Assembly (NCBI GenBank): GCA_964396965.1
Contig: CAYNGD010000007.1
Coordinates: 22,941 to 86,940, forward strand
Source: an uncultured Dehalococcoidales bacterium
GTDB taxonomy: Bacteria; Chloroflexota; Dehalococcoidia; Dehalococcoidales; BS750m-G39
DNA length: 64,000 bases
Direction of reading: 5' to 3'
Shown: one piece after another, positions 34,648-52,344 of the stretch
Layout of the letters: each line of letters begins with the position of its first letter
How positions within the stretch are numbered: position 1 is the first letter of the stretch
Program-made: the position numbers and the translations under genes
The notes under the pieces: generated by a model
The model's input: the letters and a program-made list of their open reading frames with translations, nothing else
Databases searched by the model: none
Told to the model about the DNA's origin: nothing

Positions 34648-35638
34648 CCTCTTTGTTCTCCAGGGCCAGTTCTACAATCCTACCGATAAACTGCGGGTAG
34701 GTCATGCCGGCGGCCTCGGCCTGCCGCACCGCCCCCGAGCCGGGGGAGATATCGGGGTTGGGGTTGGCCTCGATAACATTAAGCTGCCCCGCCTCATCCC
34801 GCCGCATATCAACTCTAGCATAGCCGCGGCAGCCGAGCAAGCCGAGGGCGGCAAGGGCGGTTTTAGCGATTTCCTCCCTCTCGCTGTCTTCGATTTGGGC
34901 CGGGCAAATTACCTTAGTACCCTGAAAATATTCGCTTTCGGGCTGCCACTTGGCAGCGAAGGTGAGCAGGCGGGGCACCCCCTCCGGCAACGAGTAATCT
35001 ATCTCGGAAACGGGCAGGACGGTATCACCGAGCACGGTAGCGTTGAACTCGTGGCCTTCGATGAAATGCTCAACCAGGGCCTGCCCGCCGTAGTAGCGGC
35101 TGACCGCGGTCACCTGCTTTTCCAACGAGGCAAAGTCACTGACCACGTTCTGCGCCGAGAGCCCGTGGCTGGCGTCCTCACGGCGGGGCTTGACGATGCA
35201 GGGGTAGCTCAGGTGGAAGCTGGAGAGATTCTCCGGCCGGAGCAGCTGGAAATCGGGGGTGGCAATACCGGCGTTCTTTAAGAGCGCCTTGGTCCTGGCC
35301 TTGTCCAGGGCTAATTTGAGGGCCGCGGCAGAACAGCCGGTGAAGGGCAGTTTGAGCGCCGCTAGCATTTCGACTATCTCGGCCTCTGTCTCCGGGTGGC
35401 CGGCAAAGCCCTCGAAGAGATTGAAGACCAGGTCGGCCTTCAGGGCAGCCAGCCTTTCCCGGGCGCGGGGCAGGGGCGGCACCAGGGGGAGCTTGACCAC
35501 GCCGTAGCCTGATTTGAGCAGGGCATCCTCCACCGCCTCCACCGCCTCAAGGACACCGCTGACGGCGGCCCGCTCACCGCGCTCGTCATAGCGGCTCTTC
35601 AGGGGTTCGTTATAGACGATGGCTACACGGCGACGCAC
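34574..35638 (-). CDS. D-alanine--D-alanine-ligase-like ATP-grasp amidoligase (paralog 2)
   Basis: 354 aa with Ddl-family architecture (FNLFEGFAGHPETEAEIVEMLAALKLPFTGCS; ATP-grasp core with ARVDMRRDEAGQLNVIEANPNP). Its 3' end overlaps the GNAT start by 74 nt. Confidence 0.8.
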   Translation of the reverse strand: MRRRVAIVYNEPLKSRYDERGERAAVSGVLEAVEAVEDALLKSGYGVVKLPLVPPLPRARERLAALKADLVFNLFEGFAGHPETEAEIVEMLAALKLPFTGCSAAALKLALDKARTKALLKNAGIATPDFQLLRPENLSSFHLSYPCIVKPRREDASHGLSAQNVVSDFASLEKQVTAVSRYYGGQALVEHFIEGHEFNATVLGDTVLPVSEIDYSLPEGVPRLLTFAAKWQPESEYFQGTKVICPAQIEDSEREEIAKTALAALGLLGCRGYARVDMRRDEAGQLNVIEANPNPDISPGSGAVRQAEAAGMTYPQFIGRIVELALENKEDGGQDTPDAEKGQFGRDGAAARPA

Positions 35639-36621
35639 GGAGAGTACCTTTTCAAGGCGGCCTCAAAGACTGCCTGTATCAGCCCCTGTTGCGTCCAGCC
35701 CAGCTTCTGGGCCATGATAATCAGGTCGCTGTAACTGCCCAGCCCGGGCAGGGGGTTTATCTCCAGGAAATAGGGAATTCCACCTGGGCCGATTCTGAAG
35801 TCGATACGGGCGAAGTCTCGGCAACCCAAGACTTTAAAAACCTTGAGGCTGGCCAGAGCAATCCTCTCATTAACCTCGTCGGCCAGCCTGGGGGGAGACT
35901 CGTAGTCAACCAGGTTGAGGTAATCTCGCTTTACCTCCAGTGAGTAGACGAAGTGCCCCTCACTTTTCCGGGGCAGGATGCGCATCAGGCCCACCAGGCG
36001 GGGCGGAGCATTGCCGATAATACCGGCGGTGACCTCGTCACCGCTGATGAACTCCTCAGCCATCACCGGCTGCCGGTAATCGTTAAGCAGGCGGCTCACC
36101 TCTCTGGTCATCTCCTCCCGGCTTTCCACCACCGAGCTGGAGCGGATGCCCTTGCTCGAGCCTTCGTAGGCCGGCTTGACGATGGCCGGGAATTTCTCCC
36201 AGGCTAGTTTACCCAGCTCCTCCTCGTCGTTTACCATCTGCCACTGCGGAGTAGCGATACCTTCGGCGGCCACCAGCCTCTTGGCTAGCGGTTTGTCCAG
36301 GCAGACGGTCAGGCAGTGGGAGTCCGAGCCGGAATAGAGGATGCCCAGCATCTCCAGAACAGCCGGCACCTGGGACTCGCGGCTGCGTGAGCTGCCCCTC
36401 CCCTCGGCGATGTTAAAAACGATGTCAACCTTCTCCCGCCGTATGTTGTCCAGGAACTCCTCGCCCCCGCCCAGCAGCACCACCGAGTGTCCGGCGGCAG
36501 CCAGCGCGGCAGCGATAGTCTCCACCGTCTCCCGGGAGTCATACTCCTCTAAAGCGTCTTCGGGGGCGGCGGCGTCCAAGGGTATGGCTGACTTAAGATC
36601 GTAGGCTAAGCCTATCCGCAT
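35623..36621 (-). CDS. D-alanine--D-alanine-ligase-like ATP-grasp amidoligase (paralog 1)
   Basis: 332 aa (FNIAEGRGSSRSRESQVPAVLEMLGILYSGSD; ARIDFRIGPGGIPYFLEINPLPG). It overlaps both neighbouring genes. Confidence 0.8.
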   Translation of the reverse strand: MRIGLAYDLKSAIPLDAAAPEDALEEYDSRETVETIAAALAAAGHSVVLLGGGEEFLDNIRREKVDIVFNIAEGRGSSRSRESQVPAVLEMLGILYSGSDSHCLTVCLDKPLAKRLVAAEGIATPQWQMVNDEEELGKLAWEKFPAIVKPAYEGSSKGIRSSSVVESREEMTREVSRLLNDYRQPVMAEEFISGDEVTAGIIGNAPPRLVGLMRILPRKSEGHFVYSLEVKRDYLNLVDYESPPRLADEVNERIALASLKVFKVLGCRDFARIDFRIGPGGIPYFLEINPLPGLGSYSDLIIMAQKLGWTQQGLIQAVFEAALKRYSPCVAV

Positions 36622-37948
36622 CCCTGGTTCCTGCCTTCTTGACCGCTACCGGCACCTTAACCGACAAGGGCAGTTGCGCCGGCACTGGCTTGGCCCTGGC
36701 CTTCAGCCTGGGGTTGTGGCAGTGGTAGATATGGCCGCGGTAGTTCCTCACCAGAATCCTGTCCCCGTTCTGAGAGAGGATATAGTTGGGCTGCACCGGC
36801 ACCTTGCCCCCTCCCTGGGGCAGGTCAATAACGAAAGTGGGCACCGCCAGCCCCGAGGTGTGGCCGCGCATACCCTCGATTATATCCAGGCCAGTTGCCA
36901 GCGGCGTGCGCAGGTGCTCCGTCCCCTCCACCTCGTCACACTGGAAGAGGTAGTAGGGTCGCACCTTAATCCTTAGCAGCCCCTGGCACAGTTTGGTCTG
37001 TGCCTCCACACTGTCGTTGATGCCGCGCAGCAGCACGCTCTGGTTGTTCACCGGGACGCCGCTCCGCACCAGCCTGTCGCAGGCGGCAGCTGCCTCCGGA
37101 GTTATCTCGCGGTAGTGGTTGAAATGGGTGTTGAGCCATATCGGGCCATATCTGGAAAGCATGGCGCAAAGCTCGTCATCGATGCGCTGGGGCAGCACCA
37201 CCGGGAAGCGGCTGCCGATGCGGATAATCTCGACGTGCTCTATCTGCCGCAAGCTGCCGATAACGCCCTCAAGGTGGTGGGTGGATAGAGTCAAGGGGTC
37301 ACCGCCGGAGATGACCACATCCCTGACCGCCTTATGATTGCGGATGTAGTCCAGCATGGCCTCAATTTCGCCGAGGGTGCGCACCCAACCGCCATGCCTC
37401 CACTCCCGCTTGCGGGTGCAGTGGCGGCAGAGCATGGGGCAGATATCGGTCAGCACCATTAAAACACGGTCGGGGTAGCGGTGTACCAGTCCGGGGACAA
37501 CCGAGTCCCTCTTCTCCTCAAGGGGGTCTTCGCTGCCGATTCCGGCCAGGGCTATCTCCTCAAAGGCGGGCACGGACTGAAGCCGAATGGGGTCTTGGGG
37601 GTCATCGGGGTCAATCAGGGAAAGATAATAAGGGGTTATTGCCAGCGGGTACTTGATGGTGACCAGCCTGAGCCTGGCCTGTTCTTCAGCAGTCAGGGGT
37701 ATATAGCTGGCCAGTTGTTCGACGGTGGTGATGCGGTGGCGGAAGTGCCACCTCCAGTCTTTCCAGAGGCTATCGGGTATGTGCCCAAAGAATCTTCGTC
37801 TCTGGGCGCTGGTACTGGGAGGTTCCCCCTCCGGGGTGGTAACTATAGCTGCGCCGGGAGGTTCCTCCTCGGCCTCAGCCGCGGTCTCTATAGAATATTT
37901 TTCCGCCCTCAGGGCGGGTTGTTTTTTAATTATTCCAGGTGCTTTCAC
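36593..37948 (-). CDS. kamA: KamA-family radical-SAM aminomutase (lysine 2,3-aminomutase-like)
   Basis: Radical-SAM CPMLCRHCTRKR, plus WKDWRWHFRHRITTVEQL, AITPYYLSLIDP, HRYPDRVL, VRPYYLFQCD and FVIDLPQGGGK. GTG start. The first ~60 aa form a low-complexity N-terminal extension. Confidence 0.88.
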   Translation of the reverse strand: MKAPGIIKKQPALRAEKYSIETAAEAEEEPPGAAIVTTPEGEPPSTSAQRRRFFGHIPDSLWKDWRWHFRHRITTVEQLASYIPLTAEEQARLRLVTIKYPLAITPYYLSLIDPDDPQDPIRLQSVPAFEEIALAGIGSEDPLEEKRDSVVPGLVHRYPDRVLMVLTDICPMLCRHCTRKREWRHGGWVRTLGEIEAMLDYIRNHKAVRDVVISGGDPLTLSTHHLEGVIGSLRQIEHVEIIRIGSRFPVVLPQRIDDELCAMLSRYGPIWLNTHFNHYREITPEAAAACDRLVRSGVPVNNQSVLLRGINDSVEAQTKLCQGLLRIKVRPYYLFQCDEVEGTEHLRTPLATGLDIIEGMRGHTSGLAVPTFVIDLPQGGGKVPVQPNYILSQNGDRILVRNYRGHIYHCHNPRLKARAKPVPAQLPLSVKVPVAVKKAGTRDADRLSLRS

Positions 37949-38512: not shown

Positions 38513-39523
38513 TTACAGCTCCCAGAAGCTGCGCAGCTCCCGGAAGTCAATCAAGCCGTTCTCGGCGACATTTTCAATCTCGATACCGGCCTCAACGGCG
38601 GCCGCCACCGGATTAAGACCGCCGAGCTGGACGATACCAACCCGGTTCAGGGCCACCGGAATCTGGCAGAGCGGCTCGCTGGTACCGCCAACGGCAAAGA
38701 TGCCGCCGATGCCGACCTCCTTGAGCCGGGCTATCCTCTCCTCGACAACCTCCCGGGCCGGTGCCGGCACCGTCCGGAAAACGCCCAGTATCTTGCCGCT
38801 CCCCGTACTAGCGGCCTTGCCGACGCTGGTCATCCTGGCCTGGATGAACTGCTCGGAAGGGTCAACCGAGGTACCGGCATAGTCAATTATGGCGACAAAG
38901 CGCCTGGGCTTTAGATTTCTAACCTCAAGCAGGCCGCCAAAGCGGAACTCCACCGGCACCCCTGCCTTGAGCAGCACGCCGTTTGTGGCCACGCTGCAGA
39001 CGGTGGCCAGGCCAATCTTACCCTCGGGCACCACCGCCGTCCCCAGCTTCTCCCCCTCATTGGCGGTGGCCACCAACTCGCTGACGCAGAGCCCGGATTT
39101 AAAGGCGCCCTTCATCACCGCCAGCGCCTTCTTGAACTGCTCCCTATCGATGAGCGAGGTGTTTATCGGTAATTGGCCGCTGCCCTTTTCCGGGTCGAAA
39201 CTGGTCTGGTAGGCCAGCAGCTCCAGCTTATCGCGCACAAAGCCGAGGTGCTGAGGGGCCAGGGCCTCCTTGACCTCCCGCCGCCCTTCCTCAGTAATCA
39301 TCCGCCCATCCCGTCCGGCGGGCTGGGTATAGCCGCGTTCGTCGGCTATCTTCAGGTGATACCTCACCCCCCGCTCGCTCAAGAAAACCCCTTCGTCCTC
39401 AAGCCGGCGGGCAATAGTGATTGAACCCAGTGGTTCCGAGGACTCGCTCAAGACCTTGAGAATAGATATTAGCTTACCTTCGGCGTCGGAACCAACGACC
39501 TGTTCCGCCATCAGCCTCGCCAC
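38513..39523 (-). CDS. nrpR: NrpR-type nitrogen repressor homolog (wHTH + one DUF128/NRD domain)
   Basis: 336 aa. N-terminal wHTH (LISILKVLSESSEPLGSITIARRLEDEGVFLSERGVRYHLK), then a DUF128-like body. It is the last gene of the nitrogen cluster. GTG at 39523 or ATG at 39511. Confidence 0.72.
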   Translation of the reverse strand: MARLMAEQVVGSDAEGKLISILKVLSESSEPLGSITIARRLEDEGVFLSERGVRYHLKIADERGYTQPAGRDGRMITEEGRREVKEALAPQHLGFVRDKLELLAYQTSFDPEKGSGQLPINTSLIDREQFKKALAVMKGAFKSGLCVSELVATANEGEKLGTAVVPEGKIGLATVCSVATNGVLLKAGVPVEFRFGGLLEVRNLKPRRFVAIIDYAGTSVDPSEQFIQARMTSVGKAASTGSGKILGVFRTVPAPAREVVEERIARLKEVGIGGIFAVGGTSEPLCQIPVALNRVGIVQLGGLNPVAAAVEAGIEIENVAENGLIDFRELRSFWEL

Positions 39524-39572: not shown

Positions 39573-41573
39573 TTAAGGCTGCTTACCAGCCGGGCGCAGC
39601 TTGTGGTACATAGTCTCTAAATCTTCGAGCCACAGCTGGTCTTGAGCCTCCGAGGGCATTCTCCAGTCCCCCCGGGGGGAGAGGCTCACCGAGCCTACCT
39701 TCGGCCCCTCGGGCAGGCAGGTCCTCTTGAACTGGTTGGCGAAGAAGCGGCTGATGAAACTCTTCAGCCACTTATACAGGTCGTCCAGAGAGTACTTGCC
39801 TTCAAAAAGCCCCTGCCGGCTCACCTCGTTGGCCAGGTAGAGAATCCGGCCTGGCCTCATGCCGAAGCGGATGAAGGGATAGAGGTAGAAATCGGCCAGC
39901 TCAAACGGCCCGATAAGCTCCTCGCTCTTCTGCCTTATCAGGCCGTTTTCGGGCCGGATTAACTCCGGGGAGATCGGGGTCTTAAGAATATCATACAATA
40001 CCTTCTGGGCCGGTGTGCCGGCCATCTCTTCATCGGCCACCCAGCGCACCAGAAAGCTCACCAGGGTCTTGGGCACCGAGGCGCTGACGTGGTAGTGTGA
40101 GATGTGGTCTCCGGCGAAGGTGCACCAGCCCAGGGCAATCTCGGTGAGGTCGCCCGTCCCCAGCACGATGCCGTCGAGCTGGTTAGCCTTGTTAAAGAGG
40201 AACTCGGTGCGGTAGCGGGCCTGGACGTTCTCGAAAACCACATCCTCCCCGCCGTCGTGCTCCAGGTCTTTCAGGTGCGAGTTGCAGCTCCGGCTGATGT
40301 TCACCCGGTCCAGGCTCACCCCCAGTGCCTGGCACAGCCTGGTGGCGTTAGCCCTGGTCCTCCGGGTAGTCCCAAAACCGGGCATGGTGAAGGCATGGAC
40401 ACTGGTCCGCGGCAGCTTGAGAAAGTCTATCGTCTTGGCGGCAACCAGCAGTGATAGTGTGGAATCAAGGCCACCGGAGACCCCCAGCACCAGCCGGCTC
40501 TTCTTAGCGCCGGCCAGCTTCTGAGCGAGCGCCCCCACCTGCATGGCAAAGATTTCGCGGCAGCGGTCTGCCCTTCTCGCCGGCTCCTCGGGGACAAAGG
40601 GATGGGGGTCGAGCGTCCGCTCCAGACGGCGAGGGGAGAGGTCGCTGACCTCGGCCTCGACCACCCGGCAGGCTTCCACGCCGGCCGCCTGCTCCCGAAA
40701 GCTGGTCATCACGCTGCGGTCGTGCCCAAGCCGCTCCAGGTCAATATCGACCACGATAAGCCGGGAATCCGGCGACAAGCGCGCCGATTCCCTTAATATC
40801 GTCCCGTTCTCAGCGATGATGATATGACCGCCGTAGACCAGGTCGTTGGATGACTCCCCGATGCCAGATGAGACATAGCAGTAGGCGGCGATGCACCGGC
40901 CTGACTCCGAAGAGACCATTGTCCGGCGCCAGTCCGCCTTGCCCAGCACCTCGTTGCTCGCCGAGAGGTTGACCAGCACCGTCGCCCCGGCCAGCGCCTG
41001 GTACTCGTGAGGGGCCAGCGGCACCCACAGGTCCTCACAGATCTCAACACCGATGATAGCGGATTTAATTCCGCGCAGTCTGAAGAGAATGTCGCTGCCA
41101 AAAGGAACTTCCTGGCCGGCCAGCTCGACGAGAGTGGAACCGACCTCGGTAGCCGGGGCAAACCAGCGGTCTTCGTAGAACTCCCGGTAGCCGGGCAAAA
41201 GGGTCTTGGGGATAACCCCCAGAATACGGCCAGAGTTCAGGACCACAGCACAGTTAAAAATCTTCTGCTCGACCACGAGGGGCAGCCCCACCATCACCAC
41301 CATCGCCCTCCTGGCGCTCTCCGCCAGAACCGCCTCCAGCCCCTTCTCCGCCTTGGCCAGCAGCGCCCGGTGCTGGACCAGGTCACCGAGGGTATAGCCG
41401 GTGATAGCCATCTCGGGAAAAGTGAGCACCTGCACCCCCTGCTCCCCGGCCTTCCTCATGGTGCTGATAATTGCTTTAACGTTAAAATCAACGTCGGCCA
41501 GGCGGAGCGCGGGCACCGCCCCGCCGATGCGCAGAAAACCGAGATCGCTATTCAGTTGAACGCCTTCAGCCAC
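39573..41573 (-). CDS. nadE: glutamine-dependent NAD+ synthetase (nitrilase domain + NAD synthetase domain)
   Basis: 666 aa. CN-hydrolase catalytic Cys in VEICEDLWVP and the PP-loop GVSGGLDS. GTG start with a GGAAGGGGG SD. Confidence 0.9.
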   Translation of the reverse strand: MAEGVQLNSDLGFLRIGGAVPALRLADVDFNVKAIISTMRKAGEQGVQVLTFPEMAITGYTLGDLVQHRALLAKAEKGLEAVLAESARRAMVVMVGLPLVVEQKIFNCAVVLNSGRILGVIPKTLLPGYREFYEDRWFAPATEVGSTLVELAGQEVPFGSDILFRLRGIKSAIIGVEICEDLWVPLAPHEYQALAGATVLVNLSASNEVLGKADWRRTMVSSESGRCIAAYCYVSSGIGESSNDLVYGGHIIIAENGTILRESARLSPDSRLIVVDIDLERLGHDRSVMTSFREQAAGVEACRVVEAEVSDLSPRRLERTLDPHPFVPEEPARRADRCREIFAMQVGALAQKLAGAKKSRLVLGVSGGLDSTLSLLVAAKTIDFLKLPRTSVHAFTMPGFGTTRRTRANATRLCQALGVSLDRVNISRSCNSHLKDLEHDGGEDVVFENVQARYRTEFLFNKANQLDGIVLGTGDLTEIALGWCTFAGDHISHYHVSASVPKTLVSFLVRWVADEEMAGTPAQKVLYDILKTPISPELIRPENGLIRQKSEELIGPFELADFYLYPFIRFGMRPGRILYLANEVSRQGLFEGKYSLDDLYKWLKSFISRFFANQFKRTCLPEGPKVGSVSLSPRGDWRMPSEAQDQLWLEDLETMYHKLRPAGKQP

Positions 41574-41639: not shown

Positions 41640-42983
41640 TTACAGTACTGGCAGGTATTTTTTAAGCTCGTACTCGGTTACCTGAGCCTTGTACTGGTTC
41701 CATTCTATCTTCTTGTTCTCGATAAAGGCCTTGAAAGTGTGCTCACCGAGGGCCTTGCGCACCACCTCGCTCTTCTCGGCCAGCAGTATAGCCTCCAGCA
41801 GGCTGGCGGGCAAGGTGCCGATACCTCGCTCCTGCCTTTCTGCCTCGGTCATCTCATATACGTTTTCTTCTATCGGCTTCGGGACTTCGTAACCCTTTTC
41901 GATGCCTTCCAGCCCGGCGGCCAGCATAACGCTGAAGGTGAGGTAAGGATTACAGGCCGGGTCAGGAGACCTGAATTCTATCCTGGTGGCTTTTTCCTTG
42001 CCCGGCTTATATTCGGGAACCCTCACTAAGTCAGCCCGGTTTCGCCTTGCCCAGGATTGGTATACCGGCGCCTCGTAGCCGGGCACCAGCCGCTTATAGG
42101 AGTTGACCCACTGGTTACAGACAGCCGTAATCTCAGGGGCGTGTTTGAGCAAGCCGGCGATATAACACTTGGCTATCTTGGACAGGTGGTAGGCATCATC
42201 TTTATCAAAGAAGGCGTTACGTTCGCCCTTGAAAAGCGACTGGTGGACGTGCATACCGCTGCCGTTGATGCCGAAGATGGGCTTGGGCATAAAGGTAGCG
42301 TAGAAACCGTTTTGGATAGCAACCTGCTTCACCACCAGCCGATAGGTCATCACGTTATCGGCCATGGTCAGGGCGTCGGTATAGCGCATATCTATTTCAT
42401 GCTGGCTACCGGCCACTTCATGGTGAGAATACTCTACGCCGATGCCAAGCTCCTCCAGGGCGAGCACGGTCTCACGGCGCAGGTCGGTGGCCATATCCAG
42501 CGGGATAAGGTCGAAATAGCCGCCAAAGTCGAGCTGTTCGGTGTCCTGGGAATTCCTGAAGTAGAAGTATTCCAGCTCCGGCCCCACGTAAAAGGTATAG
42601 CCTAGGTCGGCCGCCCGCTTGAGGTTCCTCTTGAGGACAAACCTGGGGTCGCCCTCAAAAAGCTCGCCCCCCGGCCTCAAGACGTCACAGAACATACGGG
42701 CCACGGCGCGGTGCTCGCGCGGACGCCAGGGTAGCAACCGGAAGGTCTCCGGGTCGGGCAGGGCAACCATATCGCTTTCGTCGATGCGGGCAAACCCCTC
42801 AATCGAAGAACCGTCAAACCCCATGCCTTCCTCCAGGGCCCCTTCCAATTCCTCCACAGTGATGGCAAAGCTCTTGAGCATCCCTAAGATATCGGTAAAC
42901 CACATACGGATAAACTTAACATCGTGCTCTTTGGCCATCTTCAGGACATAGGCTTTACCTTCTTCCCGGCTTCTGTTTGTCAT
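41640..42983 (-). CDS. glnA: glutamine synthetase, type I
   Basis: 447 aa with GFDGSSIEGFARIDESDM and GINGSGMHVHQSLF. AGGAGG SD upstream. Confidence 0.92.
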   Translation of the reverse strand: MTNRSREEGKAYVLKMAKEHDVKFIRMWFTDILGMLKSFAITVEELEGALEEGMGFDGSSIEGFARIDESDMVALPDPETFRLLPWRPREHRAVARMFCDVLRPGGELFEGDPRFVLKRNLKRAADLGYTFYVGPELEYFYFRNSQDTEQLDFGGYFDLIPLDMATDLRRETVLALEELGIGVEYSHHEVAGSQHEIDMRYTDALTMADNVMTYRLVVKQVAIQNGFYATFMPKPIFGINGSGMHVHQSLFKGERNAFFDKDDAYHLSKIAKCYIAGLLKHAPEITAVCNQWVNSYKRLVPGYEAPVYQSWARRNRADLVRVPEYKPGKEKATRIEFRSPDPACNPYLTFSVMLAAGLEGIEKGYEVPKPIEENVYEMTEAERQERGIGTLPASLLEAILLAEKSEVVRKALGEHTFKAFIENKKIEWNQYKAQVTEYELKKYLPVL

Positions 42984-43062: not shown

Positions 43063-44627
<1,565 letters not shown>

Positions 44628-44733
44628 TTAAAAACCCCCGTGGTCTAGTTATCCCAAATAGTCTAACCGGCGATTGTTTCCAACAGATTACAGGGGAGTT
44701 AAATTTAGGTTACAGATTGATAAACAGGGGCTT

Positions 44734-45414
44734 TTAAGCCTTAAAGCGGTAGCCGATGTTCCTCACCGTCTCGATGAAAGAATGGCTGGCGTCCTCAATC
44801 TTGCTCCTGAGCCTACGCACGTGCACGTCCACCGTCCGGTCGCCGCCGTAGTAGTCGTAGCCCCAGACCTGGTTGAGCAGGGCTTCACGGCTGTAGACGC
44901 GGCCCCGGTGGCTGGCCAGGAACTTGAGCAGCTCGTACTCCTTAAAGGTAAGCTCGACTGTTCTGCCCTCCAGGGTCACCTCGCAACTGGCCAGGTCGAG
45001 CAGCAGGCCGTCGCACTGGACCAGCTCGCCGCCCTCTATGTTCCGGGCTTTGCTCAAAAGCCTCTTGGCCCTTAAGGCAAGCTCCCGTCCCTCGCCGGGG
45101 CTGGTGATGAAGTCATCGATATCGAGGCTGCCGTTAAGGTTGTCCAGCATCTCCCGGGGGAGCAGGGCTATAACCGGCAGGTGTTTTTCCTCTTTCAGCC
45201 CCCGGACGATTGCCTGCATTTCAGCGGCCGGCAGGCTGCCGTCTATTTCAAGCAGGACTAAATCGGGGCGATAGGTGCTTATCTCCTTGTCCAGCTTCTG
45301 GCCGTGAGGAACGATGGAGCAGGCAAAGCCGCTGCCGGTCATCTGGGAACGAAACTCGGCCAGCTCCCCGGTCTCCCTAGCTATCATCAGCAGCCGCAGC
45401 ATGGTCATCCCCAT
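44734..45414 (-). CDS. OmpR/PhoB-family regulator with degenerate (pseudo-)receiver domain
   Basis: The C-terminal winged helix is intact (ELTFKEYELLKFLASHRGRVYSREALLNQVWGYDYYGGDRTVDVHVRRLRSKIE). Aligned by eye to PhoB, the receiver loses the acidic pair (VVEDE -> MIARE). It also changes the phospho-Asp (LLD -> LLE), Thr (MLTA -> ALLP) and Lys (ITKP -> ITSP). Confidence 0.85.
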   Translation of the reverse strand: MGMTMLRLLMIARETGELAEFRSQMTGSGFACSIVPHGQKLDKEISTYRPDLVLLEIDGSLPAAEMQAIVRGLKEEKHLPVIALLPREMLDNLNGSLDIDDFITSPGEGRELALRAKRLLSKARNIEGGELVQCDGLLLDLASCEVTLEGRTVELTFKEYELLKFLASHRGRVYSREALLNQVWGYDYYGGDRTVDVHVRRLRSKIEDASHSFIETVRNIGYRFKA

Positions 45415-46172
45415 CAGTAGGCGTAGAGGCGGCCATAAGGCCGCAGCCAGCGGGGGAAAAGTTTTATAAAATTGCGCTTCATTATTTCTTCGGCATTATA
45501 GCCGAAGTGAGCGGCGAATTCGCCGACCAGCTGCTTAAGGACCTTTAGGTCGGCCTCCTCAAGCTGAGTAACGCCCACCTCTTTGCCCAGCTGGTGCTCC
45601 TCGACATTGCCCCTCAGGTAGATAACGCCGCCGTGCATGCCGGTACCGATGAAATTGGCCTTGTGGTTCTCGCCCTCTTTTAGATTAAGACCCAGCAGAA
45701 TAAGCACGCCGCCGGCCATGTACTCGCCGAGGAAGTCCTGGGCGGTTCCACCGATGACCAGCGCCGGCCCCCGTCCCTGGTACTCTTTCATATGGATGCC
45801 CGCCCGGTAGCCAACGTCCTCTTTGACGAAGATTTTACCGCCTCGCGCCGATAGCCCGATGATATCGCCGGCGTGGCCGTGGATGACTATCTCGCCCTCG
45901 TTCATGGTGTTGCCGCAGCCGTCCTGGGCGTTGCCGTGGACGATAATCCGGGGCCCGTTCATAAACGCCCCCAGGTCGTTGCCGGGGGTGCCAAATATCT
46001 CAATCTCCACCGGCCTGTCCAGGTCGGTGCCGATGTACCTCTGCCCGTGGACGTTGCGCAGCTCGATGCGGCGGGGGCTATTGGTGATGGCCTCCCTCAA
46101 ACTGGCGTTGAGCTCGCGGTAGTACACGCCGCTGGCGTCTATCTTGACTATCGAGTTCTTCCGACTAGCCAT
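45414..46172 (-). CDS. glutamate synthase domain 3 (GXGXG-motif / GltB C-terminal domain) protein
   Basis: 252 aa from MASRKNSIVKIDASG. Repeated beta-helix G-rich motifs (GTPGNDLGAFMNG, HGNAQDGCGNTM, HGHAGDIIG). The ATG at 46172 lies 2 nt after the upstream stop. The ORF-track extension to 46427 overlaps the preceding gene and is rejected. Confidence 0.85.
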   Translation of the reverse strand: MASRKNSIVKIDASGVYYRELNASLREAITNSPRRIELRNVHGQRYIGTDLDRPVEIEIFGTPGNDLGAFMNGPRIIVHGNAQDGCGNTMNEGEIVIHGHAGDIIGLSARGGKIFVKEDVGYRAGIHMKEYQGRGPALVIGGTAQDFLGEYMAGGVLILLGLNLKEGENHKANFIGTGMHGGVIYLRGNVEEHQLGKEVGVTQLEEADLKVLKQLVGEFAAHFGYNAEEIMKRNFIKLFPRWLRPYGRLYAY

Positions 46173-46174
46173 CT

Positions 46175-47677
46175 CTAGCTCCCGGCCATCCTCACTCCCA
46201 GTATCTCCAGCTCGGTATCGGTCAGGCCAACCCCCCTCAGGTGCAGGCGGTTGCCCCTCAGGCTCTCGATGGCGTTGACCCCCAGCCCGCCCAGTATATC
46301 TTTTAGCTCGATGCTCCAGCCTCTTAATAAATTGGCCAGCCTTCGGGCGCCGATGTCGGGGTTGACCCGCTTGGTCAGGCGGAGGTCGGTGGTGCATATT
46401 CCCCAGGCGCACTTGCCGGTGTGGCACTGCTGGCAGACATGGCAGCCCAGGGCGATTAAGGCCGCCGTGCCGATATAGACGGCGTCCGCCCCCAGGGCGA
46501 TGGCCTTGGCCACGTCGCCGCTGTTCCTGATGCCGCCGGAGACAACGATAGAGGCCTGGTTGCGTATCCCCTCTTCGCGCAGACGTGTGTCCACCGAGGC
46601 CAGCGCCAGCTCTATAGGGATACCCACGTTATCCCGGATAACCTTGGGCGCCGCCCCGGTAGCGCCCCGGAGCCCGTCCAGGACGATAATATCGGCACCG
46701 CCCCGCACCATGCCGCTGGCGATGGCCGCCGAGTTGTGGACGGCGGCAATCTTGACCGAGATAGGCTTGGTATAGTTGGTCGCCTCCTTTAAAGCGTAGA
46801 TAAGCTGGGCCAGGTCTTCTATAGAGTAGATATCGTGCTGGGGCGCCGGCGACAGGGCGTCCGTACCCCGGGGAATCATTCGCGTTAATGATACTTCAGC
46901 GCTCACCTTTTCTCCGGGCAGGTGCCCGCCGATGCCCGGCTTGGCCCCCTGACCAATCTTGATCTCGACCACCCTGGCCGCGTCCAGGTAGTCGGCATAA
47001 ACGCCGAAGCGCCCGGAGGCCACCTGGACGATGGTGTTGTCGCCATACTTATATAAGCTGGGGTGGAGACCGCCCTCACCGGTGTTCCATAAAGTCCCCA
47101 TCTCGGTGGCCGCCCTGGCCAGAGAGGTATGCACGTTGAGGCTGACCGCCCCGTAGGACATGGCGGCGAACATCACCGGCACCTCCAGCCTCACCTGCGG
47201 GGCCAGCTTTGTCTTTAGATGATTGGACTTATCCAGCTCCAGCCGGTCGGGCTTACTCCCCAAGTATGTGGTAAGCTCCATCGGCTCACGGAGGGGGTCG
47301 ATGGAGGGGTTGGTAACCTGGCTGGCGTTGAGCACCAGGTGGTCCCAGTAGATTCGCTGCCCCTTGTCGTCGCCCATGCCGGTTAGCAGCACCCCGCCGG
47401 TCTCGGCCTGCTTCAGGATGTCATCGACCACTTCGGGGCGCCAGTTATAGTTCTCGCGGTACTCCTGAGGGTTGCGGATGATGGTCAGCGCCTGGGTAGG
47501 GCAAAAGACCTCGCAGCGGTGGCAGCCGACGCAGTTCTCCTCCCGGCTCCTGACCTCGTTGTCCTCGGCGTCATAGTAGTTGGCGTCAAACGAGCACTGG
47601 TTGACGCAGACCTTGCACTGGATGCAGCGCTCCGGGTCCCGCCTTACTATAAATTTAGGTGCTATATAGGTCTTCAT
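46175..47677 (-). CDS. glutamate synthase domain 2 (FMN-binding) with N-terminal 2x[4Fe-4S] ferredoxin domain (archaeal-type)
   Basis: 500 aa with CIQCKVCVNQC and CVGCHRCEVFCP, then the GltB FMN/TIM-barrel core (GEGG, KIGQGAKPGIGGHLPG, GGTGAAP-like RGATGAAP, and 3Fe/4Fe Cys in CHVCQQCHTGKC). Confidence 0.9.
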   Translation of the reverse strand: MKTYIAPKFIVRRDPERCIQCKVCVNQCSFDANYYDAEDNEVRSREENCVGCHRCEVFCPTQALTIIRNPQEYRENYNWRPEVVDDILKQAETGGVLLTGMGDDKGQRIYWDHLVLNASQVTNPSIDPLREPMELTTYLGSKPDRLELDKSNHLKTKLAPQVRLEVPVMFAAMSYGAVSLNVHTSLARAATEMGTLWNTGEGGLHPSLYKYGDNTIVQVASGRFGVYADYLDAARVVEIKIGQGAKPGIGGHLPGEKVSAEVSLTRMIPRGTDALSPAPQHDIYSIEDLAQLIYALKEATNYTKPISVKIAAVHNSAAIASGMVRGGADIIVLDGLRGATGAAPKVIRDNVGIPIELALASVDTRLREEGIRNQASIVVSGGIRNSGDVAKAIALGADAVYIGTAALIALGCHVCQQCHTGKCAWGICTTDLRLTKRVNPDIGARRLANLLRGWSIELKDILGGLGVNAIESLRGNRLHLRGVGLTDTELEILGVRMAGS

Positions 47678-47687
47678 CCTCTTACCC

Positions 47688-48455
47688 CTAAAGCCTCACC
47701 GGTATTCCCCGCTCGGCCAGATATTTCTTTATATCACCGATGGAGTAGGTCCCGTAGTGAAAGATGCTGGCCGCCAGCACGGCATCGGCCTTGCCCAGGA
47801 CCAGCGCCTGATAGAGGTCCTCGGGAGAACCGGCACCGCCGCTGGCAATCACCGGCACGCTCACCGCCTCGGAGATGGCCCGGGTAAGCTCGTTGTCGTA
47901 GCCGGTCTGGTGTCCGTCGGCGTCCATGCTGGTAAGAAGTATCTCGCCGGAGCCGAGCTCAACCACCTTATTAGCCCACTCGATGGCGTCAAGCCCGGTG
48001 GGTTTCTGGCCGCTCTGGATATAGACCTCCCATTTAGGCTTCTCACCCCCGTTTACCCTCTTGGCGTCAATGGCCACCACGATGCACTGGCTGCCGAACT
48101 TATCGGCGCCCTCCTTAATCAGATCGGGCTTGAGCACCGCCTCGGTATTGATAGATACCTTATCGGCGCCGGCCAGCAGCATCCGCCGCATGTTGGCTAT
48201 TGTTCGCAGTCCCCCGCCGACGGTAAGCGGCATGAATACCTTCTCTGATATACGCTCGACGACGTCAACCATGGTGTCGCGCCCCTCCGGGGTGGCGGTG
48301 ATGTCTAGAAAGACCAGCTCGTCGGCGCCCTCTTTATAGTAGAAGTCAGCCCTCTCCACCGGGTCTCCAGCGTCACGCAGCTGGACAAAACTCTTGCCCT
48401 TGACCACCCGCCCGCCTTTGACGTCCAGGCAGGGTATGATTCTTTTGGTCAGCAT
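47688..48455 (-). CDS. hisF: imidazole glycerol phosphate synthase cyclase subunit
   Basis: 255 aa with [33 protein letters not shown] and ASGGAG. Confidence 0.92.
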
Positions 48456-48456
48456 T

Positions 48457-49581
48457 TTATTTAACTCCCCCGGCCACTCTATTCCTAGCCCCTACCTTTA
48501 ATCTGCCCACCACCGGCTGGCCGCCCATCGGTATCCAGGCCTTGTCCAGATCGGGGGCTATCAGCCGTATCGCCGACTCCTCCGAGGATAGATAGAGCAT
48601 CTCCCCCTTCTCCCCCACCGTGAGCGGCCTCAGGCGAATACGGTCGGTCAGACCTATCATCTCGCCGTGGTGGGCGATAATCACGGCGAAGGGTCCGTTC
48701 AATAGCAGGCTGCCGTAGACCTGGCGCAGTGCCAGCATCAGCTTCTGCTCCTCCAGCGGCATACGCCCGATGACCTCCCAGAAGGGCGGCGCCAGTATCT
48801 TGGCCACTATCTCCAGGGGCAGGTGGTGCTGGCGCATCAATAAATCAACGGCGTAGGCCACCACCTCGGTATCGGTCTGCATGGTACACTGGTAGCCAAA
48901 CTGCTCCAGGTAGCGCCTGTTTATTCCGTAGGAAGAAATCTCGCCGTTGTGGATGACCGTCCAGTCCAGTATGCAGAAGGGGTGCGCCCCACCCCACCAG
49001 CCGGGGGTGTTGGTCGGGAAGCGTCCGTGGGCGGTCCAGAGGCAGCCCTGGTACTGTTCCAGGCAGAAGTAGTCGGCAATCTCCTCGGGGTAGCCAACAC
49101 CTTTAAAGACCCCCATGTTCTTGCCGCTGGAGAAGACGAAGCTGTCGCACAGCTCGGTATTTATGGTCATTACCTTTTCCAGCACGTAGTCATCAGCGGA
49201 CTTCCGGCCTGGTTTATTTATGTCAAGGAAATAGCGCCGGACCAGCGGCGGGTCCTTGATTACCGGCACCGGCCTGGTCGGCACCTCCTCCTGCTCGATG
49301 ACCTTGAAATTGTCCTTTAGAAACGCCTCCGTCTCCTGCCTCCCCTGCTGGCTCAGGAACATGATGTGCAGGGCGTACTGGTCGGCGTATTCGGGGTAGA
49401 GGCCGTAGATGGCGAAGCCGCCGCCCAGCCCGTTGCCGCGGTCGTGCATGTTGGCGATAGCCTTAATTACCCCCTCACCGGAGAAGCGCCGGCCGGTAAT
49501 GTTCATTGCCCCGAATACGGAACAGGCGTCGATTACCTTGTTATCGTTATTGGGGTTATTTATCCGCCAGATGTTTTTCAC
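48457..49581 (-). CDS. glutamate synthase domain 1 (class-II glutamine amidotransferase) protein
   Basis: 374 aa. The Ntn-type catalytic Cys context (DACSVFGAM) is preceded by a short propeptide. [12 protein letters not shown] also present. Confidence 0.85.
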
Positions 49582-49583
49582 CG

Positions 49584-50933
49584 CTATTCTCCAATAACCG
49601 CCTCTTCCGGTTGCTCGGGCGGCGGTACTATAGAACCCGCCTCAGCGGGCGGTGCCGCCAGCCTATCCCGCCAGATTGCCTCGGGCAGGGAGGCCAGGCC
49701 GAAGTCATCGGCAACCAGCATCTCTTTGAAGGCCGCCACATCTATTCTGTCCTTCATCAGATTGTAGATAATGCCCGCCTTTTCGATATCGCCGACCAAA
49801 ATCATGCCCAGTATCTTACCGTCCTTTAATATTATCTTTTTATAGATGCCGTCGCCCCTCTTTAGCAAGACTTCATAGCTGTCATCAGGCGGGCTGACCA
49901 TCCCCGCCGAGAGGATATTCACCCCGAAATACTTGAGGGCGTTCATGGCGGTGCCGCCCTGATATTCGGCCTTCTTACCGGCCATATTCAGGCCGGCCAC
50001 CCTGCCACCGATATAGGCATTGGGCCAGACCGGAGTCAGCCGGTTCTCGCCGTAAACGAAATCATAGGCCTGACTGGCATCGCCGCAGGCATAGACGCCG
50101 GAAACTGAGGTCGCCATGCGGCGGTCAACGATGATGCCCCGGTTAGTCTTGACCCCGCTGCCGGTCACCAGGTCGAGACGCGGCCTGACGCCGATGGCGA
50201 TGACGACCATGTCGCAGGCCAGAGAGCGCCCGTCGTCAAGGCTGACCCCGCTGACCTCGCCGAGCCGACTGCCATTGATTCTGGCCACGGTGTGTCCCGT
50301 TATCAGGTCAACGCCAGCCTTAACCAGGGCTTCCGCCTCGAAGCCCGCCGCCTCCTCATCGAGGATGGTGTTCAGGACCCAGTCCTTCATCTCAACGATG
50401 CTGACCCCAACCCCACGCTTGACTAAAGCCTCGGTGGCGCTCACCCCGATAAGCCCCCCGCCGATGACCACCGCCTTGAGCACTCCCTGGCGCTGCTTCA
50501 GGAATTTATCAATGGCCTCGGCGTCGCCGAGGGTGGTGAAGGTGAAAACGCCCTTTAGCTCTCTACCCTCTATACTATCGGGCACGATGGGCACGCCACC
50601 GGTGGCCAATAATAGCTTCTGCCAGGCAATTATTCGCCCGCTGGCCAGCTCAATATCACGTTCGGTGAAATTAATCCGCACCACTTTATCGCCCAGGATG
50701 GTCTTGATTTTGTTCTTCTCATAGAAATCGGCGGGGCGGTAGAGCATCCTCTCCAGGGGACGCCCCTCAGCCAGGTGCTCCGAGATAAGCGGGCGTGAGT
50801 AGGCCGGGTAGGGCTCTTCGGAGACGATAGCCAGCGTCCCCACCCGGTCCACCCCACGGATGGCCTCGGCGGCGGCGATGCCCCCAGCCGAGTTGCCGAT
50901 GATCAGATAGTTTATTTTCTCTTCTCTGGCCAT
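49584..50933 (-). CDS. FAD/NAD(P)-dependent pyridine-nucleotide-disulfide-family oxidoreductase (NADH-oxidase-like)
   Basis: 449 aa from MAREEKINYLIIGNSAGGIAAAEA (FAD GxGxxG), with a second dinucleotide fold VVIGGGLIGVSATEAL and ACGDAS. The ATG at 50933 lies 1 nt after the hisH stop. The ORF-track extension to 51056 is rejected. Confidence 0.85.
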   Translation of the reverse strand: MAREEKINYLIIGNSAGGIAAAEAIRGVDRVGTLAIVSEEPYPAYSRPLISEHLAEGRPLERMLYRPADFYEKNKIKTILGDKVVRINFTERDIELASGRIIAWQKLLLATGGVPIVPDSIEGRELKGVFTFTTLGDAEAIDKFLKQRQGVLKAVVIGGGLIGVSATEALVKRGVGVSIVEMKDWVLNTILDEEAAGFEAEALVKAGVDLITGHTVARINGSRLGEVSGVSLDDGRSLACDMVVIAIGVRPRLDLVTGSGVKTNRGIIVDRRMATSVSGVYACGDASQAYDFVYGENRLTPVWPNAYIGGRVAGLNMAGKKAEYQGGTAMNALKYFGVNILSAGMVSPPDDSYEVLLKRGDGIYKKIILKDGKILGMILVGDIEKAGIIYNLMKDRIDVAAFKEMLVADDFGLASLPEAIWRDRLAAPPAEAGSIVPPPEQPEEAVIGE

Positions 50934-50934
50934 T

Positions 50935-51576
50935 TTATTGCCGCCTGTCTGCTTTTTCGCCCAGGGCAATCCTGATAAAATTATCGTATATCTTGAGCCC
51001 CACCTCGCCGCTCTTCTCCGGGTGGAACTGGGTGGCCACCAGGTTTTCCCGGGCAATCACGCTGCAGAAGGTGACGCCGTAGTCAGTCGTGCCGGCCACC
51101 AGCGATCTGTCCTCCGGCTCGACATAGTAGCTGTGGACAAAGTAGAAGTTGGCCTCATCAGCTATGCCGGCGAAGATGGGGTGGGCGAACTTCTGTTTCA
51201 CCTGGTTCCAGCCCATGTGGGGGACCTTCAGGCCCGGGGAGAATTTGCGCACCGCACCGGGGATAATGCCCAAGCACTCGTTCCAGCCACCCTCCTCGGT
51301 GCCGCTGAAGAGCACCTGCAGCCCGATGCAGACCCCCAAGAAGGGCCTCCCCTCAGCGATGTAGCCCTTAATCGGGCCTTCCAGCCCCAGTTTGCGCAGG
51401 CCGGCCATAGTATCGGCGGCGGCGCCCACCCCGGGCAGGATAACCGCCCGCGCGCTCATAACCTCGTCAGGGCGGTCGGTCACCCTGGCCTCATAGCCCA
51501 GCCGGCTGACAGCGTTGACCACGCTGCACAGGTTGCCAGCGCCGTAATCGATTATGGCAATCACCTGAACTCCCAC
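50935..51576 (-). CDS. hisH: imidazole glycerol phosphate synthase glutamine amidotransferase subunit
   Basis: 213 aa with IAIIDYGAGNL, catalytic GVCIGLQ, HMGWNQV and FYFVHSY. Confidence 0.9.
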   Translation of the reverse strand: MGVQVIAIIDYGAGNLCSVVNAVSRLGYEARVTDRPDEVMSARAVILPGVGAAADTMAGLRKLGLEGPIKGYIAEGRPFLGVCIGLQVLFSGTEEGGWNECLGIIPGAVRKFSPGLKVPHMGWNQVKQKFAHPIFAGIADEANFYFVHSYYVEPEDRSLVAGTTDYGVTFCSVIARENLVATQFHPEKSGEVGLKIYDNFIRIALGEKADRRQ

Positions 51577-51589
51577 TCTTCCTATTTTA

Positions 51590-52054
51590 TTACCGGCTCT
51601 TTAGCTCAGCGCTGCCCTCCGGGACCTCGATATAGACCAGCGCCTCGTTGGGGCAGTTGGCCACACAGACCGGGATCTCCTCCCCCTGGCAGAGGTCGCA
51701 CTTGAGCGCCTTCTTTTTCTCTATGTCCGGCCTTATCGCCGCCAGCGGGCAGACCAGCAGGCAGGTCCAGCAGCCGATGCACCTCTCCTCGTCCACCCTG
51801 ACCATGCCGCTCTCCAAGTCTCGGGCCAGCGCGCCGGTAAGGCAGGCCTGGACACAGGGGGCGTCCTCGCAGTGCTGGCAGCGCACCGAAAGCGATACTA
51901 CCCCCCCCTCATCCACCCGGAGCCTGGCCGGCGGCGGTGACTCCCTCTTGAACGCCTTGACCAGGTCTTTGGTACCGGCGTGCTTGAGCTGGCAGTACAC
52001 CTCGCAGAGGTGGCAGCCGATGCAGACCTCTTCCTTAACGTAGACCTTCCTCAC
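51590..52054 (-). CDS. 4x[4Fe-4S]-motif ferredoxin-like electron-transfer protein
   Basis: 154 aa with four Cys clusters (CIGCHLCEVYC, CQHCEDAPCVQAC, CIGCWTCLLVCP, CDLCQGEEIPVCVANCP). GTG start with a GGTGA SD. First gene of the operon. Confidence 0.85.
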   Translation of the reverse strand: MRKVYVKEEVCIGCHLCEVYCQLKHAGTKDLVKAFKRESPPPARLRVDEGGVVSLSVRCQHCEDAPCVQACLTGALARDLESGMVRVDEERCIGCWTCLLVCPLAAIRPDIEKKKALKCDLCQGEEIPVCVANCPNEALVYIEVPEGSAELKSR

Positions 52055-52074: not shown

Positions 52075-52130
52075 ATACGGTAAACGGTTACCGTATGCCA
52101 TATAATAGCAGATATAATAATATTTGTCAA
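52075..52130 (-). promoter_or_regulatory. sigma70-like promoter plus 22-bp perfect palindrome operator for the GOGAT/his/amt operon
   Basis: Read on the minus strand: TTGACA (52125-52130), N17, TATTAT (52102-52107). ATACGGTAA-N4-TTACCGTAT (52075-52096) covers the predicted +1 region, 21 nt upstream of the GTG start. Confidence 0.45.
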
Positions 52131-52256: not shown

Positions 52257-52312
52257 TTGACCCCGGCTGCCCTTTTGTGCTAAAATTATTTGTTGACCAA
52301 AATAGTCAACAA
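52257..52312 (+). promoter_or_regulatory. sigma70-like promoter plus palindrome operator upstream of a small Cys-rich ORF
   Basis: TTGACC (52257-52262), N18, TGcTAAAAT (-10 at 52281-52286). TTGTTGAC-N7-GTCAACAA (52290-52312) lies over the predicted transcription start. Confidence 0.4.
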
Positions 52313-52344
52313 AAGGCCTTCGCCTAAGAGAGGAGATAGAGAAG

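Follow-up and report, generated by a model that had tools for sequence, protein, structure and literature searches.

The present work concerns a stretch of 64,000 nucleotides from an uncultured Dehalococcoidales bacterium (contig CAYNGD010000007.1; the whole of this stretch is referred to as the window), and specifically a tightly packed run of seven genes on its minus strand (52054->45414) in which hisH and hisF, the genes for the two subunits of imidazole glycerol phosphate (IGP) synthase, are interleaved with those of a split glutamate synthase (GOGAT). Protein families were assigned by scoring NCBIfam and Pfam profiles against their curated cut-offs. From the head of the run onward, the list of open reading frames (ORFs) reads as follows:

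51590-52054, minus strand: Fer4, a four-[4Fe-4S] ferredoxin of 154 amino acids (aa) with four CxxCxxCxxxC-type motifs and 16 Cys (PF13247; HydN/DmsB/PadI-like); first gene of the putative operon
50935-51576, minus strand: hisH (TIGR01855, 224.6 bits against a cut-off of 105.4)
49584-50933, minus strand: flavoprotein of 449 aa, FAD/NAD(P)H, Pyr_redox_2 (PadH/NirB-N-terminal-like; PadH-like match of 300 bits)
48457-49581, minus strand: GAT2 (GATase_2), a class-II (N-terminal nucleophile, Ntn) glutamine amidotransferase of 374 aa, 'GltB domain 1'
47688-48455, minus strand: hisF (TIGR00735, 384.7 bits against a cut-off of 294.55)
46175-47677, minus strand: flavin mononucleotide (FMN) subunit of 500 aa, 'GltB domain 2', with N-terminal 2x[4Fe-4S] and a Glu_synthase FMN domain (PF01645, 459.8 bits)
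45414-46172, minus strand: GXGXG protein, 'GltB domain 3' (PF01493, 112.7 bits)

The intergenic gaps within this run are, in order, 13, 1, 2, 1, 10 and 2 nucleotides (nt), and the next junction, between the GXGXG gene and a regulator gene, is -1 nt; these values were computed with corrected internal ATG starts for the flavoprotein (50933) and the GXGXG protein (46172). An earlier inspection of the locus (hereafter the sequence-only reading) had named these seven genes, had taken them for a split archaeal-type GOGAT with a companion Fe-S protein and flavoprotein, and had remarked upon the two separate insertion points of hisH and hisF. On each of these matters it was right: the profiles recover all seven families, three separate ORFs match the amidotransferase (175-254), FMN (864-1169) and GXGXG (1266-1457) regions of the GltB model PRK11750, such that these parts are separate proteins as in the archaeal-type enzyme, and the two insertion points recur in related loci. 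No separate gene for the central domain of GltB was found in the cluster. Relatives of GAT2 bear the Joint Genome Institute (JGI) name 'glutamate synthase domain-containing protein 1', and the conserved GAT2 motif KVIDACS(V/I)FG has its Cys as residue 20 of the ORF as called, where a role as N-terminal nucleophile would require a propeptide or another start.

The Fer4 ferredoxin would serve as the electron wire of the GOGAT and the flavoprotein as its electron input, and the enzyme is probably NAD(P)H-dependent. Its role in forming glutamate from glutamine and 2-oxoglutarate is predicted from its place next to glnA, glnB and amtB. The same three-ORF split, with a four-cluster ferredoxin and a flavoprotein, likens the cluster to the glutamate synthase of archaea and Thermotoga (COG0067, COG0069 and COG0070 as separate proteins, an Fe-S protein and an NADH-oxidase-like flavoprotein). 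Unlike that system, however, the present cluster holds two histidine-pathway genes at two of its junctions; the Thermotoga and archaeal clusters are not known to contain his genes. A his-less form of the cluster also exists in close relatives (L109, L130, L139 and L156; related loci are denoted throughout by L and a number).

Distribution among related loci

Relatives were gathered from two sources: species-representative genomes were scanned with the HisF of the window, giving 80 loci whose synteny was read by tblastn, and metagenomes were scanned with a GAT2 alignment, from which the best 80 of 568 matches, all 69-91% identical, were taken. In protein searches with GAT2, the regulator and HisA, the best 120 matches listed for each were environmental sequences of at least 61% identity, with no named isolate among them.

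Among the loci from both sets that span both junctions (n=61), 52 hold both his genes, nine hold neither and none holds only one; the naive probability of this both-or-neither pattern is 5.8e-11, as computed for loci that are not phylogenetically independent. The positions do not vary: hisH consistently separates Fer4 from the flavoprotein, and hisF separates GAT2 from the FMN subunit. The same order in 52 other loci argues that the arrangement is not a matter of chance, and the layout first remarked upon in the window is thereby borne out across related genomes. The direct order GAT2-hisF-FMN is present in 27 of the 80 genome loci, and the full order Fer4-hisH-Flavo-GAT2-hisF-FMN-GXGXG (continuing with the regulator, amtB, glnB, glnA, nadE and nrpR) is seen wherever the contig is long enough. 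When HisF is at least 72% identical to that of the window (45 assemblies), hisF lies among nitrogen genes, save for two stand-alone hisH-hisF loci (L019 and L028), and hisA is found at none of the 45 loci; below approximately 72% identity the canonical hisH-hisA-hisF order is met, in other Dehalococcoidia, Chloroflexota and Verrucomicrobiota. Within the interleaved clade, HisF identity extends down to approximately 72% and that of the regulator down to approximately 45%.

A tree of GAT2 places the his-less clusters at scattered positions, and a search of their junction gaps for remnants of hisH or hisF returned nothing at E <= 1 except one chance-level match (E = 0.28, 22 residues). Several changes in the his-gene state have taken place, and parsimony favours loss or replacement of alleles on repeated occasions over a series of insertions at two identical junctions. 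The GOGAT genes can also be missing: L012 (hisH-hisF-regulator-amtB), L025 (hisH-hisF-amtB) and L026 (hisH-hisF-nadE-nrpR) hold the his pair without any of the five GOGAT genes, nest within the interleaved clade, and display precisely the remainder expected after deletion of those five. At L023 (1495-5425), hisH and hisF are full length and stand beside truncated or fused fragments of the flavoprotein and GAT2 and a 179-aa FMN remnant, a state that reflects either gene decay or an assembly error.

The closest genome loci come from Dehalococcoidales metagenome-assembled genomes (MAGs), with HisF up to 92% identical. Two loci with the same full synteny and a HisF of 92% identity, L001 and L002, are the closest relatives of the window and are deposited as 'Deltaproteobacteria bacterium' MAGs; since the locus otherwise occurs in Dehalococcoidales MAGs, this label suggests a taxonomic mislabel or mis-binning. 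Two further loci (L044, 487-9662; L016, 9292-17803) carry, between or beside hisH and hisF, genes for MvhD (FlpD), a MetV-like DUF5981 protein, MetF (methylenetetrahydrofolate reductase), two Glu_synthase-domain proteins and a GATase/GXGXG fusion of approximately 880 aa, which may constitute an uncharacterised GltB-like system with a methylenetetrahydrofolate reductase/MvhD electron module. In L044 this gene set is followed by nrpR, the regulator, amtB and glnB.

The interleaved arrangement is thus present, unremarked, in many public MAG annotations. The sequence-only reading had allowed that the order might prove common and already annotated in a well-studied clade; it is indeed common in one bacterial order and is contained in public annotations, but no paper describing it was found. 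The literature searched likewise yielded nothing on his genes inside a GOGAT operon, or on nitrogen control of hisHF in Dehalococcoidia, and a survey of his operons does not give the order of these genes for Dehalococcoides.

Assignment of HisH and HisF

The sequence-only reading had raised the idea that this HisHF pair was recruited for an amidotransfer outside of histidine synthesis. Both proteins pass the equivalog cut-offs given above. HisH carries the class-I triad motifs (the Cys in GVCIGLQ, the His and Glu in QFHPEKS) when aligned with the HisH of 4gud. HisF scores below the cut-offs of the paralog models (WbuZ, 274.6 bits against 299.7; AglZ/HisF2, 219.4 against 310), and among solved structures it matches the reconstructed HisF of the last universal common ancestor (4evz) with 355 bits and that of T. 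maritima with approximately 260 bits. The alignment shows no variation at R5, D11, E46, K99, D130 and E167, all six of which are present, and the phosphate sites keep their GGG, SGG and AAS motifs; from established structural work we take Asp11 and Asp130 to be catalytic and Arg5, Glu46, Lys99 and Glu167 to form the ammonia gate (T. maritima numbering). In a neighbour-joining tree of HisF, all of the nitrogen-cluster copies make up a single clade whose sister is the canonical, hisA-linked HisF from other Dehalococcoidia, with approximately 70% identity between the two and no long branch. Judged by these sequence features, HisH and HisF appear to be orthodox IGP synthase subunits with no sign of an altered substrate.

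With respect to copy number, the 45 assemblies with a cluster hisF yielded no second match in the HisF scan, a result that is weak insofar as MAGs are incomplete and the scan is pattern-dependent; in 35 other assemblies the same scan did pick up a canonical hisF, 60-72% identical. A second, intact-looking hisF stands directly after nrpR in L017 (5857-7619) and L096 (3582-5328). It is 58-59% identical to the cluster copy and keeps the catalytic residues, and some genomes must therefore carry two hisF genes.

The reduced histidine locus

In bacteria the order hisB-H-A-F usually persists as the conserved core of his operons, in which IGP synthase forms the connection to nitrogen metabolism; scattered his genes are seen in many lineages (PMC10138114). 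That core is kept in other Dehalococcoidia as hisH-hisA-(methyltransferase)-hisF-hisI, and the HisH and HisF proteins of the present cluster are as orthodox as those of the core. Here, by contrast, hisH and hisF stand apart from hisA and, by two unrelated genes, from each other, under a promoter shared with genes of nitrogen assimilation. Neither the 64-kb window nor any locus of the interleaved clade contains hisA, and in none of them are hisH, hisA and hisF adjacent in the canonical way.

With the HisA of a canonical Dehalococcoidales locus (L043) as query, HisA relatives were collected and their gene contexts read. A class of 238-aa HisA proteins is encoded in the order hisH-hisA-methyltransferase-hisF-hisI, followed on the opposite strand by the genes for L31, L27 and L21. 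A second class, of 245 aa and sampled in three lineages, has only hisA-hisI at the same site, and these loci share the downstream DUF1385-L31-L27-L21 genes with the canonical ones, except that L31 lacks a call in L167; one of them shares the upstream Cob_adeno_trans gene as well. HisI, L31, L27 and DUF1385 of the hisA-hisI locus are 53-84% identical to their counterparts at canonical loci. A his locus emptied of exactly hisH and hisF accordingly exists in Dehalococcoidia, and complements the clade in which these two genes stand at another place and without hisA. As the 245-aa HisA and the cluster HisF are each 71% identical to their homologs in L043, the complementarity and the parallel identity levels suggest that the hisA-hisI locus and the nitrogen cluster reside in the same organisms.

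The canonical Dehalococcoidia loci also contain, between hisA and hisF, a gene for a class-I S-adenosylmethionine (SAM) methyltransferase (L161, 8702-9346; L043, 9362-9997; L036, 3953-4597). The reduced hisA-hisI loci lack this gene as well as hisH and hisF.

Downstream nitrogen genes

Six further genes follow the GXGXG gene on the same strand, which brings the string to thirteen (52054->38513):

44734-45414, minus strand: atypical OmpR-family regulator, overlapping the GXGXG gene by 1 nt; only its Trans_reg_C domain reaches the Pfam threshold
43398-44627, minus strand: amtB, ammonium transporter (PF00909, 429 bits)
43063-43401, minus strand: glnB/glnK, P-II protein (profile match)
41640-42983, minus strand: glnA, type I glutamine synthetase (GS) (TIGR00653, 531 bits)
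39573-41573, minus strand: nadE, glutamine-dependent NAD+ synthetase with CN_hydrolase glutaminase and NAD_synthase domains (NF002730, 847.9 bits)
38513-39523, minus strand: nrpR, archaeal-type nitrogen repressor homolog (PF01995, 263.5 bits; HTH_12 winged helix, 62 bits)

One maker of glutamine, three users of it, an ammonium transporter and three regulators are joined in this string. The order glnA-nadE-nrpR recurs in many relatives, which argues that a third glutamine amidotransferase, NAD+ synthetase, is part of the nitrogen gene string. Given its 1-nt overlap with the GXGXG gene, the regulator gene probably closes the operon. Compared by eye with the PhoB pattern, its receiver domain appears to have Glu in place of the phospho-acceptor Asp, and Ala and Ser in place of the conserved Thr and Lys; as such, the protein is likely to be phosphorylation-independent.

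Just downstream of the string (35623-37948), a gene for a KamA-family aminomutase adjoins one for a D-Ala-D-Ala-ligase-like ATP-grasp protein. The aminomutase scores 478.6 bits with the lysine 2,3-aminomutase model, below its cut-off of 525.4, and the pair may belong to a beta-amino-acid or osmolyte pathway.

Regulatory sequences

Three candidate control elements were located around the cluster:

52102-52130, minus strand: sigma-70-type promoter (TTGACA, 17 nt, TATTAT, with TG before the -10; 11/12 matches)
52075-52096: perfect 22-bp palindrome, ATACGGTAA-N4-TTACCGTAT = ATACGGTAAACGGTTACCGTAT, 5 nt past the -10 box; candidate repressor operator
44676-44713, minus strand: four pentamer boxes, GTAAC-n6-TTAAC-n6-GTAAT-n6-GAAAC, with 11-bp spacing, upstream of amtB

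The promoter, which lies 48 nt before the start of Fer4 (52130-52102), is the strongest match between 41000 and 53000. With gaps of 1-13 nt, the seven genes have no space between them for internal signals, and promoter- or terminator-like sites in the run are no commoner than in shuffled sequence; the independent transcription of these genes from internal promoters, which the sequence-only reading had envisaged as one way in which its view could fail, thus finds no sign here. No Rfam family, a glutamine riboswitch for example, was matched between 40000 and 54000. The divergent intergenic region of 520 nt that lies between the operon promoter and cutA contains a terminator-like inverted repeat (52289-52313) with an 11-bp stem (TTTGTTGACTATTTTGGTCAACAAA).

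The palindrome is the only such match in the 64-kb window and, from its position, likely coincides with the start of transcription. Alignment of regions upstream of Fer4 in related loci, anchored on the palindrome, revealed a common module of TTGACA, 17 nt, an extended -10, approximately 5 nt, [A/G]CGG[C/T]AA-N4-TT[G/A]CCG[T/C], and 25-45 nt to the start codon. At least 9 of the 12 core positions of the palindrome are kept in 61/69 loci, and in most of the loci aligned the -35/extended -10 pattern stands at the same offset from the operator. Counted with a stricter match to ACGGNAA-N4-TTNCCGT (at least 10/12), the core is found upstream of Fer4 in 50/67 loci, compared with approximately 1% of random 210-nt windows. 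It precedes Fer4 in his-containing and his-less clusters alike, and also stands upstream of hisH in L012 and L026 and of nrpR(-hisF2) in L017; upstream of glnA, amtB and nadE in the related loci it is essentially absent.

Which protein would act at this site is suggested by comparison with methanogens, where the NrpR operator has the consensus GGAA-N6-TTCC (PMC2723118). An nrpR homolog belongs to the same gene string here, and the palindrome has the same geometry, with 4-nt half-site cores 6 nt apart at a likely transcription start; the half-sites, however, read GG[T/C]A-N6-T[A/G]CC, with the third base changed, and the palindrome is not found at glnA or amtB. There is precedent in the NrpR regulon for an operator before an anabolic glutaminase gene, namely pdxT of Methanobacterium formicicum (PMC4335013), and homologs of NrpR in Dehalococcoides were noted in 2007 (PMC1852104). 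Taken together, the geometry, the pdxT precedent and the Dehalococcoides homologs make NrpR a candidate for the protein that binds the palindrome, though the lack of the site at glnA and amtB speaks against carrying the methanogen scheme over unchanged.

The four-box pattern upstream of amtB is conserved in approximately 20 diverse loci, and is likely the binding site of the adjacent OmpR-type regulator. Direct repeats at 11-bp periodicity are typical of OmpR-family binding, and the boxes resemble those of actinobacterial GlnR (gTnAc-n6-GaAAc). GlnR too is an orphan OmpR-type nitrogen regulator, and an OmpR-family gene accompanied by nitrogen genes and four boxes before amtB invites the analogy; the regulator here, however, appears to be without the phospho-acceptor Asp, and the likeness is offered as an analogy only.

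Discussion

In our estimation, ordinary IGP synthase genes have probably moved into a nitrogen-controlled split-GOGAT operon without any enzymatic coupling between the two systems, which makes the locus a variant in operon organisation among known families. hisH and hisF would have left the conserved hisH-hisA-hisF core in a large, uncultured clade of Dehalococcoidales and entered the split-GOGAT operon, where one transcript would now carry Fer4, hisH, the flavoprotein, GAT2, hisF, the FMN subunit, the GXGXG subunit and the atypical OmpR-type regulator. A repressor bound to the palindrome, for which NrpR from the end of the same gene string is the candidate, would shut the operon under nitrogen sufficiency. 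Upon derepression the co-transcribed regulator would be made and act at the four-box sites before amtB-glnB to activate these genes, a cascade that the regulator's place as the last gene of the GOGAT-hisHF operon renders plausible. HisH and HisF would still form imidazole glycerol phosphate and 5-aminoimidazole-4-carboxamide ribonucleotide (AICAR) for histidine and purine synthesis, exchanging no ammonia and forming no complex with GOGAT, and by virtue of their location the expression of a glutamine-consuming anabolic enzyme would accompany that of GS, GOGAT, the ammonium transporter and the NAD synthetase that depends on glutamine.

Several observations weigh against this account and should be kept in view. 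The single transcript and its nitrogen response are predicted from sequence rather than from expression, and the single-copy status of hisH and hisF is judged from loci and the 64-kb window rather than from a whole genome of the clade; the second, intact-looking hisF after nrpR in L017 and L096 sits uneasily with it. No shared contig or genome joins the emptied his locus to the nitrogen cluster. The palindrome departs from GGAA-N6-TTCC and is missing at glnA and amtB, the sites of NrpR action in methanogens, and NrpR may therefore not be its binder. The operator kept at loci that hold only hisH-hisF may be mere inheritance of the only promoter available rather than the outcome of selection for nitrogen control. 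Last, a physical association of the proteins would equally predict that the two his genes occur strictly together or not at all, and at fixed points of insertion.

Such an association deserves consideration in its own right. HisH and HisF could belong to the split GOGAT as subunits or as obligate partners, for example in a shared glutamine-handling complex that coordinates glutaminase activity or glutamate recycling, with the gene order reflecting co-translational assembly; the invariant positions and gaps of 1-13 nt, the occurrence of both his genes or neither in 61 loci but never of one, and the bracketing of a different GltB-like gene set by hisH and hisF in L044 would all be in keeping with this. 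We nevertheless regard it as very unlikely. HisH and HisF form an obligate heterodimer and must co-occur for that reason alone, GOGAT has a class-II glutaminase of its own, and the best 120 GAT2 relatives listed, all of 366-394 aa, include no fusion proteins. Furthermore, hisH-hisF remain, behind the same promoter, where the five GOGAT genes have been lost (L012, L025 and L026), and they also remain beside decayed ones (L023), while nine close relatives keep the GOGAT cluster and neither his gene, which together argue against an obligate complex. The sequence-only reading had suggested that the layout may couple glutaminase capacity or glutamine sensing. Direct coupling of glutaminase capacity is disfavoured, as either gene set has been lost while the other persists, but control shared with glutamine metabolism, through a common promoter/operator and nitrogen neighbours, does fit. 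A bolder form of the idea, in which HisH and HisF are integrated with the split GOGAT in a multi-subunit glutamine-handling machine where two glutaminases and two TIM-barrel synthases share regulation or substrate and gene order is assembly order, is one to which we attach a very small probability; were it true, the both-or-neither pattern and the fixed positions would reflect a protein complex and not just shared transcription.

That the cluster pair performs a non-histidine amidotransfer, with histidine made by a canonical pair elsewhere, strikes us as very improbable. HisF paralogs of such a kind do exist, as the WbuZ and AglZ/HisF2 models attest, and L017 and L096 do have a second hisF; yet the scores lie above the equivalog and below the paralog cut-offs, the catalytic and gate residues and those for the phosphates of the substrate PRFAR (phosphoribulosyl-formimino-AICAR ribonucleotide) are all retained, the HisF clade is a short-branched sister of canonical HisF, the 45 assemblies gave, for what that scan is worth, no second match, and a complementary his locus lacking exactly hisH and hisF exists. 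The paralog proposal of the sequence-only reading is, on these grounds, not upheld. Neutral rearrangement, by which chance brought the genes into the operon and only the slowness of operon rearrangement has kept them there, such that nitrogen control of hisHF would have no adaptive meaning, differs from relocation into a nitrogen-controlled operon as we favour it only in whether co-regulation is selected. The scattering of his genes in many lineages (PMC10138114) speaks for it, as do the several departures of the his genes from the cluster, judged from the scattered his-less loci in the GAT2 tree, and retention of the operator after GOGAT loss needs no selection. We consider it unlikely all the same, in that the order has been kept while the co-transcribed regulator diverged to approximately 45% identity and the string also includes nadE, a third gene for a glutamine amidotransferase.

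The layout is real and clade-wide, all of its parts belong to known families, and the presumed functions of the enzymes are unchanged by the finding; what it offers is not new biochemistry, but a testable regulon and a case of his-core disassembly. At the IGP synthase step, the histidine pathway takes from the glutamine pool and gives AICAR back to the synthesis of purines. The placement of its genes under a GOGAT promoter/operator, near GS, P-II, AmtB, NAD synthetase and NrpR, suggests that transcription is the level at which competing amidotransferases are allotted their glutamine in a widespread and uncultured lineage of sediment and groundwater. The promoter/operator, well footprinted by conservation, may offer the first target that can be recognised for an NrpR from bacteria, and the GlnR-like box set provides a handle on an OmpR-type regulator that would not be phosphorylatable. 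Finally, with the hisH-A-F core emptied at one site and refilled elsewhere, and with repeated both-or-neither changes, the clade constitutes a natural experiment in the remodelling of operons.

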